Source: Escherichia coli (GTDB lineage: Bacteria; Pseudomonadota; Gammaproteobacteria; Enterobacterales; Enterobacteriaceae). From it: a stretch of DNA of 64,000 bases. Where the stretch lies: the NCBI RefSeq assembly GCF_003991155.1, contig NZ_CP031293.1; one strand, given 5' to 3'. The first letter of the stretch is position 1, and the number at the start of each line of letters is the position of its first letter. This document shows, piece after piece, positions 10,607 through 10,638 of the stretch. The notes beneath the pieces are model-generated. The model saw nothing but the letters and a program-made list of their open reading frames with translations, was not told the origin of the DNA and searched no databases. A program made the translations under genes and the position numbers.

Positions 10607-10638
10607 GCCGGATGCGGCGTAAACGCCTTATCAGGCCT
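10607..10638. repeat. REP palindromic unit, interrupted by IS insertion
   Basis: GCCGGATGCGGCGTAAACGCCTTATCAGGCCT matches the REP consensus; continues with AC at 11918 after the IS. Confidence 0.6.

Follow-up and report, generated by a model that had tools for sequence, protein, structure and literature searches.

An IS621 copy at the foot of a REP hairpin in Escherichia coli and the reading of its empty near-cognate neighbours

Introduction

The closest described system to the element examined here is IS621 (Choi 2003; Durrant, PMC11208160; Hiraizumi, PMC11208158), an IS110-family insertion sequence of 1,279 bp with a CT core that enters the target ATCAGGCCTAC in REPs. Its insertion was described as REP-specific in 2003 (Choi 2003, as cited in Durrant 2024), and the bridge-RNA mechanism, mismatch scans, an insertion map and a catalogue of natural sites were published in 2024. 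RNA guidance and chemistry are taken here from that literature (Durrant 2024, PMC11208160; Hiraizumi 2024, PMC11208158), according to which the RE-LE junction of the circular form rebuilds the promoter that drives the bridge RNA, and recombination is RNA-dependent. The available data comprise 173 mapped E. coli insertion sites, 272 clustered natural sites and single- and double-mismatch scans (Durrant 2024, PMC11208160); the genome-wide enumeration and the insertion and mismatch assays proposed in a preliminary description of the present locus are thus already in print.

Several other systems meet the same kind of sequence. ISPpu9 and ISPpu10 of Pseudomonas putida are described as IS110-family bridge-RNA recombinases that insert at a fixed REP position, and the ISPpu10 bridge RNA is reported there to have a distinct architecture (PMC12288879; bioRxiv 10.64898/2026.03.19.712850). 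By that description they are alike to IS621, from which they differ in host, REP family and guides. IS1397 and ISKpn1, of the IS3 family, are BIME-specific and likewise target enterobacterial REP/BIME clusters but, unlike IS621, use a DDE transposase. They are not known to be RNA-guided, and IS1397 enters the linker between REPs, not the CTAC tail. RAYT proteins (TnpA-REP, IS200/IS605-like Y1 transposases) act on the same REP units, recognizing GTAG/CTAC beside the hairpin; unlike IS621, the protein recognizes single-stranded hairpin DNA without a guide RNA, and none is involved at the locus studied here.

That locus lies in a 64,000-nucleotide stretch of an E. coli genome (the window). Its element shares with IS621 the length, core and REP target given above, the donor ACAGTATCTTG, the guide and handshake bases, the recombinase with its DEDD motif and S241, and the RefSeq name; it differs from the common form as a sublineage of 98.1% identity with the same programmed specificity. 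It belongs to a known family, is not a functionally new variant, and the useful outcome of the analysis is a correction concerning how empty near-cognate sites around such an element are to be read.

Results and Discussion

The element and its locus

The spacer between the convergent genes nhoA (9748-10593, +) and yddE (11968-12861, -), which also holds a pair of REPs, carries a 1,279-bp IS621-type IS110-family element at 10639-11917 (+), a length that includes one CT core; terminal inverted repeats are absent. The RefSeq annotation agrees (nhoA, IS621-family transposase, yddE, narI/W/H/Z and narU) and names the element 'IS110-like element IS621 family transposase'. At the left junction the sequence is ATCAGGCCT|TGTATT, or at greater length ...GCCGGATGCGGCGTAAACGCCTTATCAGGCCT|TGTATTATCC, placing the first base at 10639; the right junction reads ACAGTATCT|AC, or ...CCATAACAGTATCT|ACATTAGTCC, placing the last base at 11917, with the right-hand CT core at 11916-11917 (+) followed by the right target AC at 11918-11919. 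Removal of the element together with one CT rebuilds the target ATCAGGCCTAC (ATCAGGC-CT-AC), the CT core being present at both junctions, and joining of its ends gives the donor, also written ACAGTATCTTGTAT (ACAGTAT-CT-TG). Both are identical to the published wild-type IS621 target and donor (PMC11208160).

The 400-nt empty site produced by in-silico removal matches the nhoA-yddE region of GF131 at 400/400 positions; together with the junctions it shows the CT at both ends, the precise insertion and the lack of further duplication that mark IS110/IS621. Of 5,426 complete E. coli genomes, about 5,169 have the locus unbroken and 49 bear the same insertion; annotated IS621 copies of 98-100% nucleotide identity occur in 2,244 of the 5,426. 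The window is essentially strain 2016C-3878 (NZ_CP029747.1), from which it departs at 2 positions in 21,288 bases, and its IS621 is 100% identical to a second copy in that genome. The element is an ordinary IS621 copy in the 11-base target that is usual for it, where a REP has its foot, and no evidence contradicts this identity. We are nearly certain that it is an intact copy that entered a normal target by the normal mechanism, and it is probably active. A minus-strand open reading frame at 10600-10998 (132 aa) that overlies the bridge RNA gene was dropped as a gene, its sole support being the open frame.

Recombinase, bridge RNA and guides

The recombinase (326 aa; 10831-11811, +) was identified by NCBIfam, Pfam and a check of catalytic residues. 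It scores 252 bits (cutoff 140) in a match of the whole protein to NCBIfam NF033542, 'IS110 family RNA-guided transposase', and the Pfam families on record for the exact protein are PF01548 (DEDD_Tnp_IS110) and PF02371 (Transposase_20). The DEDD residues (D11, E60, D102 and D105) and S241 are all kept; published mutations of these five positions abolish IS621 recombination. Relative to the canonical protein, the window copy carries D220N, R238L and Y239H.

Within the non-coding left end of 192 bp lies the published bridge RNA, whose canonical sequence is also found in the supplements of Durrant (PMC11208160). Aligned to the canonical 177-nt bridge RNA, the gene here spans 178 nt (10653-10830, +) and comprises a 5' stem-loop, a target-binding loop (10686-10751) and a donor-binding loop (10763-10830); five differences separate it from the canonical form, none at a guide base. 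A search of positions 9500-13000 against Rfam release 15 at E<=1 returned no family for the bridge RNA, whose assignment therefore rests on its identity to the sequence in print.

Guide positions follow the numbering of Hiraizumi 2024 (PMC11208158) mapped onto the window. The left target guide (LTG), ATCGGGCCT at 10702-10710 (+; bridge RNA A50-U58), corresponds in sense to the top strand of the target, its pairing partner being the bottom strand of ATCAGGCCT; the right target guide (RTG), GTAG at 10730-10733 (+), pairs with top-strand CTAC and is followed by the target-loop handshake guide AT (RNA AU) at 10734-10735 (+). In the donor loop, the left donor guide (LDG), ACAGTATC at 10776-10783 (+), matches the right end of the IS, ACAGTATCT at 11909-11917; the right donor guide (RDG), AT plus CAAG at 10810-10811 and 10815-10818 (+), is the partner of CTTG..AT in the left end; and the donor-loop handshake guide GT (RNA GU) lies at 10819-10820 (+). 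The LTG, RTG, LDG, RDG and handshake bases are all identical to those of canonical IS621. As RNA, the LTG ATCGGGCCU and RTG GUAG fit the target ATCAGGCCTAC, and the LDG ACAGUAUC and RDG AU/CAAG fit the donor ACAGTATCTTGTAT, so that the preliminary description was right to see an RNA-guided IS whose guide loop matches its flanks: the element is of the IS110 family and its guides are complementary to those flanks. Read literally, LTG and RTG encode ATCGGGCCTAC, not the usual natural target ATCAGGCCTAC, which has A at position 4; the target called cognate therefore already contains a tolerated rG:dT wobble at position 4 (G53). The G53:dT pair and the handshake guides are seen in IS621 structures (Hiraizumi 2024, PMC11208158).

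Two hexamers fit the published composite promoter: TATTAT (10641-10646, +), its -10 element (Hiraizumi 2024, PMC11208158), and TTGCAG (11897-11902, +), the -35 element at the right end, whose role likewise comes from the literature. By their positions, the two would face each other in the circular RE-LE junction only, with a 17-bp spacer. A sigma-70-like scan of the integrated left end found no promoter, at a threshold that also misses the published composite promoter (-35 matches 3/6).

Taken with the literature, these features would give the following course. A bridge RNA of about 178 nt would be encoded in the left end of the element; the LTG of its target-binding loop would pair with the bottom strand of the left half of the target and the CT core, and the RTG with top-strand CTAC. 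The donor-binding loop would pair likewise with the joined ends of the circularized IS (ACAGTAT-CT-TG), and the DEDD/Ser recombinase would then swap strands past the CT core; each junction would keep a CT, and nothing else would be altered.

REP units around the insertion

The nhoA-proximal REP hairpin, GCCGGATGCGGCGTAAACGCCTTATCAGGC plus the CT core, occupies 10607-10638 (+; sequence and fold). The left target and core, ATCAGGCCT, are the last 9 bases of this REP (10630-10638), and the AC of its tail now stands at 11918-11919. The preliminary description placed the IS target inside a REP unit, as it is: the target consists of the 3' arm and CTAC tail of the hairpin. It further held that the insertion splits the REP palindrome, which the fold contradicts. 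The hairpin (-20.3 kcal/mol) has a stem that pairs through the T of CT, and the insertion point lies at its 3' foot, where CT is parted from AC in the conserved CTAC tail. The palindrome therefore stands whole to the left of the IS, and what is cut is the REP unit, not the stem. The single match of the Rfam search is a half-length one between this REP and naRNA4, a REP325-derived RNA, below the gathering score (31.2 bits, gathering 59.5, E=0.0065).

In the rebuilt locus, the REP at 10607-10638 is followed by the rest of CTAC, a 12-nt linker and an inverted REP at 11932-11960, which together form a BIME. This yddE-proximal REP (-) contains ATCAGGTCTAC at 11932-11942 (-), a target with one mismatch, C>T at position 7 (hereafter T7), and is empty in the window; the mismatch had been recognized, but the interval first given, 11931-11941, was one base off. 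The REP between narZ and narU (19656-19683, -) contains ATCAGGCTAC at 19656-19665 (-), one C short between left target and core, and is also empty; here the one-base-short target reported earlier for 19655-19683 was borne out. As REPs, these units are imperfect palindromes of about 35 nt with a GTAG/CTAC tail, lying outside genes (nhoA-yddE and narZ-narU) and folding as expected, and they are near-identical to the REP queries given by Durrant (PMC11208160).

A loose REP pattern search of the window returned mainly noise, with three convincing units that have a target-like 3' arm. By chance, 0.71 matches to the 11-mer with at most one mismatch are expected per 64-kb window, and at least one occurred in 50 of 100 shuffled sequences. 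Likeness to the 11-mer is thus not significant by itself; the two near-cognates are meaningful because both occupy the homologous position of REP hairpins. The nhoA-yddE BIME is itself polymorphic, the 12-nt linker allele being present in the window, K-12 and L014; in a short allele, at least 99% identical in 281 records, the REP tails abut (...ATCAGGTCTATGTATGCCGG...).

What empty near-cognate sites can measure

The preliminary description took the other REPs of the window, near-cognate and unoccupied, as an in-genome measure of how tightly the guide loop discriminates. Both are indeed empty here, but the yddE-proximal REP is occupied in other strains, and the emptiness of the two is no such measure. 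Five 50-kb segments (250 kb) of NZ_CP029747.1, placed regardless of IS621, contained three exact ATCAGGCCTAC REP sites and roughly twelve REP sites with one mismatch; every one of them is empty. BL21(DE3) offers at least 129 usable exact sites (Durrant 2024, PMC11208160), and the median genome has 5 IS621 places. Since exact sites are mostly empty, two empty near-cognates are expected at any stringency; the empty near-cognates of one genome are unusable as a measurement of specificity when the occupancy of perfect sites is low as well.

The first of the sampled segments (L038, NZ_CP029747.1 100001-150000) resembles a genomic island beside tRNA-Phe: it is packed with remnants of IS elements (IS5, IS1, IS3, IS256, IS4, IS66 and IS200/IS605), carries duplicated dgo, dcu and aspA-like genes, and has no REP-type IS621 targets.

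Occupancy at near-cognate junctions was counted with 71-nt BLAST queries and identity bands, one place per record, as a proxy for full enumeration. The T7 junction TTATCAGGTCT|IS621 was matched perfectly in up to 499 records, an upper bound, as compared with 1,201 records for the cognate junction by the same type of query. All six of the T7 matches that were read lie in the mtr-yhbW REP, where IS621 occupies ATCAGGTCT in 401 genomes. These 401 genomes probably share one or a few insertion events, and so they show that T7 is usable, not how often it is used. An empty T7 allele of the same REP is found at 300/300 identity in many genomes; position 7 is T also in a K-12-like strain and C in O157 and others. 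A second case comes from strain 23CRST050 (L044), in which a canonical IS621 sits inverted and precisely inserted in the yddE-proximal REP of nhoA-yddE, at ATCAGGTCT|AT. An empty short-linker allele that corresponds to it occurs at 300/300 in 3 genomes, and at 99% identity or more in the 281 records of the short allele. The REP that stands empty in the window is therefore a real IS621 target in other strains.

The occupied T7 sites could be explained away if IS621 entered only ATCAGGCCTAC or ATCGGGCCTAC and the T arose by later mutation of a flank. In favour of such an account, sequence to the left of a resident IS can drift freely, and many of the T7 junctions represent one inherited locus. 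Unbroken T7 alleles, however, match the rebuilt sites both at mtr-yhbW and at the short-spacer allele of nhoA-yddE, and since empty T7 alleles exist at mtr-yhbW, the T is most likely older than the insertion. Flank mutation followed by precise excision could in principle create such alleles, but the sequence of events would have to be repeated, and the data of Durrant (PMC11208160) contain further distinct T7 contexts. We regard late mutation as very improbable, and prefer to read T7 as a site that IS621 enters.

On that reading, the explanation first offered for the empty neighbours, namely that neither a single mismatch nor a one-base deletion is accepted by the guide loop and that emptiness measures this discrimination, appears unlikely. 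It draws some support from the deletion variant, which lacks any perfect junction, and from the BIME insertions of the window and L014, each in the REP that reads exact ATCAGGCCTAC. Exact sites, however, are about equally empty, and ATCAGGTCT is occupied both at mtr-yhbW and in 23CRST050, with empty T7 alleles at both; for the T7 site the explanation is already refuted by the occupied sites. The T7 target ATCAGGTCTAC is usable and was simply not hit here, like most exact sites, and it is probably a weaker target than these. With ATCAGGTCTAT, it falls within the natural range ATCAGGTCTA[C/T].

Term counts in the natural-site file of Durrant (PMC11208160), which are upper bounds for IS621 as the file includes the sets of several guides, run to 596 for ATCAGGCCTAC, 26 for ATCGGGCCTAC, 20 for ATCAGGTCTAC, 11 for ATCAGGCCTAT and 4 for ATCGGGTCTAT, whereas ATCAGGACTAC and ATCAGGGCTAC, with A or G at position 7, occur 0 times.

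The narZ-narU REP is a different case. In the 5,426 genomes, the deletion junction CTTATCAGGCT|IS621 had no perfect match, a search in which copies with a variant left end would be masked (a mismatch and a gap both score 98.6%); nor does the natural set given for IS621 by Durrant (PMC11208160) include the deletion variant, whose occurrences in the supplement belong to the sets of other elements only. If the CT core of ATCAGGCTAC is kept in place, all seven left-guide pairs are shifted by one; if the left half is kept, the core is lost. By virtue of that register shift or the destroyed core, ATCAGGCTAC would be a poor target and is probably a true non-target, whose occupied form would read ...ATCAGGCT|AC.

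Natural insertion sites and the basis of REP preference

Natural sites were read at 29 places, the window's own copy excluded. All 29 resemble ATCAGGCCTAC, and none is an insertion at an unrelated sequence, the observation that the preliminary description named as refuting its reading. Twenty of the places comprise 17 with ATCAGGCCTAC, two with ATCGGGCCTAC and one, outside any REP, with ATCGGGTCTAT. At L014 and in two complete genomes, the variant IS621 lies in the yddE-proximal REP, there reading ATCAGGCCTAC (ATCAGGCCT|AC); at L014, it is this REP and not the one on the nhoA side that has the exact target. Within the mtr-yhbW REP of strain ST2350 (L028), IS621 is 1,281 bp long when counted from one junction motif to the other, as compared with 1,279.

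IS621 looks REP-specific because ATCAGGCCTAC is the 3' arm and CTAC tail of a large class of REPs. An older view would have the recombinase recognize the structure of the REP hairpin, as RAYT and IS1397 do, the guide match being incidental. This was the description of IS621 before 2024 (Choi 2003, as cited in Durrant 2024), and nearly all natural sites do lie in REPs. Yet the one non-REP site, inside a gene, still fits the guide (ATCGGGTCTAT); REPs with other 11-mers are empty in the sampled genome; a natural variant (L004) shows guide and target changing together; and reprogrammed loops redirect insertion (Durrant 2024, PMC11208160), which already refutes hairpin recognition. We give it next to no credence and retain the guide as the determinant of the site.

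The non-REP site (L020; GCA_000967155.1, HF572917.2 2474381-2476361) holds a canonical IS621 at ATCGGGTCT|AT, apparently within a FUSC-family gene, and its target context is also among the natural sites of Durrant (PMC11208160). The variant (L004; E. coli APEC O18, NZ_CP006830.1 1775449-1777012) is a frameshifted relative of 1,264 bp and 95% identity, with the LTG ATCCGGCCT and an altered RTG region TGTATGGTAG, that sits at ATCCGACCT|AC; it is a case of natural guide-target covariation. This relative directly adjoins an IS1397 transposase pseudogene, and IS1397 adjoins IS621-type elements or relics at two loci, this one and znuB.

The deviations from the target that are occupied in nature are all transitions, at positions 4, 7 and 11. 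A at position 4 corresponds to rG:dT, and T at position 11 to rG:dT with G77; T at position 7 corresponds to rC:dA with the left guide and possibly to rG:dT with handshake G166 after strand exchange, when the donor-loop handshake guide pairs with target positions 6-7 (Hiraizumi 2024, PMC11208158). Position-7 transversions and the one-base deletion were not seen among occupied natural sites. Natural REP polymorphism may on these grounds reveal a graded rule for the off-targets of the wild-type guide of IS621, a suggestion we make tentatively and hold to be more doubtful than likely. Should the rule survive correction for site abundance and ancestry, wobble-compatible transitions would be the main class of off-targets to screen. 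Anyone who programs bridge recombinases may take from the natural sites a modest, independent reminder: at target positions 4, 7 and 11, transition mismatches are tolerated in vivo.

The sublineage of this copy

The window IS621 differs from the common form at 24 nucleotides (10653, 10712, 10717, 10719, 10737 and 19 more) and belongs to a minority sublineage, with matches of at least 99% in only 51 records. In the bridge RNA, nt 1 changes from A to U and linker U84 to C, and in the inner hairpin of the target-binding loop the closing G·U becomes A-U and the loop CU becomes UUC; in the recombinase, R238L and Y239H lie beside the catalytic S241. The identical variant bridge RNA and protein are found at 9 distinct insertion loci (10 places, L005-L014), all at ATCAGGCCTAC or ATCGGGCCTAC. 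Nine distinct cognate loci indicate that the sublineage is mobile with unchanged specificity, and it is apparently active, as far as the distribution of its copies can tell.

A left-end relic near znuB

About one-quarter of the records that match IS621 match its first 66-78 bp only. The znuB-ruvB spacers of Ecol_732 (L036, 401-466) and OV24 (L037, 401-478) hold one and the same solo IS621-like left-end relic. It lies in the znuB-proximal REP, where left-end nt 1-62 are flanked by the 14-bp direct repeat GCCTTATCCGACCT, followed by IS1397. From the spread of the matches, and from the two records read, the relic would be present in roughly a quarter of the IS-matching records.

The break of the relic falls at the exact start of the LTG-coding DNA. 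That DNA and the bases that follow (ATCGGGCCTTG in the canonical form) mimic the left junction ATCAGGCCTTG: the LTG DNA near-copies ATCAGGCCT|TG, which places an internal pseudo-site in every IS621, 63 bp from the left end. In the window, 10702-10712 reads ATCGGGCCTTA, and the sublineage G>A at 10712 changes the base after the pseudo-site. Possibly, aberrant excision at this internal pseudo-junction (ATCGGGCCT plus TG) gave rise to the 62-bp relic. Alternatively, the relic could be REP-derived sequence or the product of gene conversion; the repeat GCCTTATCCGACCT, known from this single locus, resembles the flanking REP more closely than it does any known LTG.
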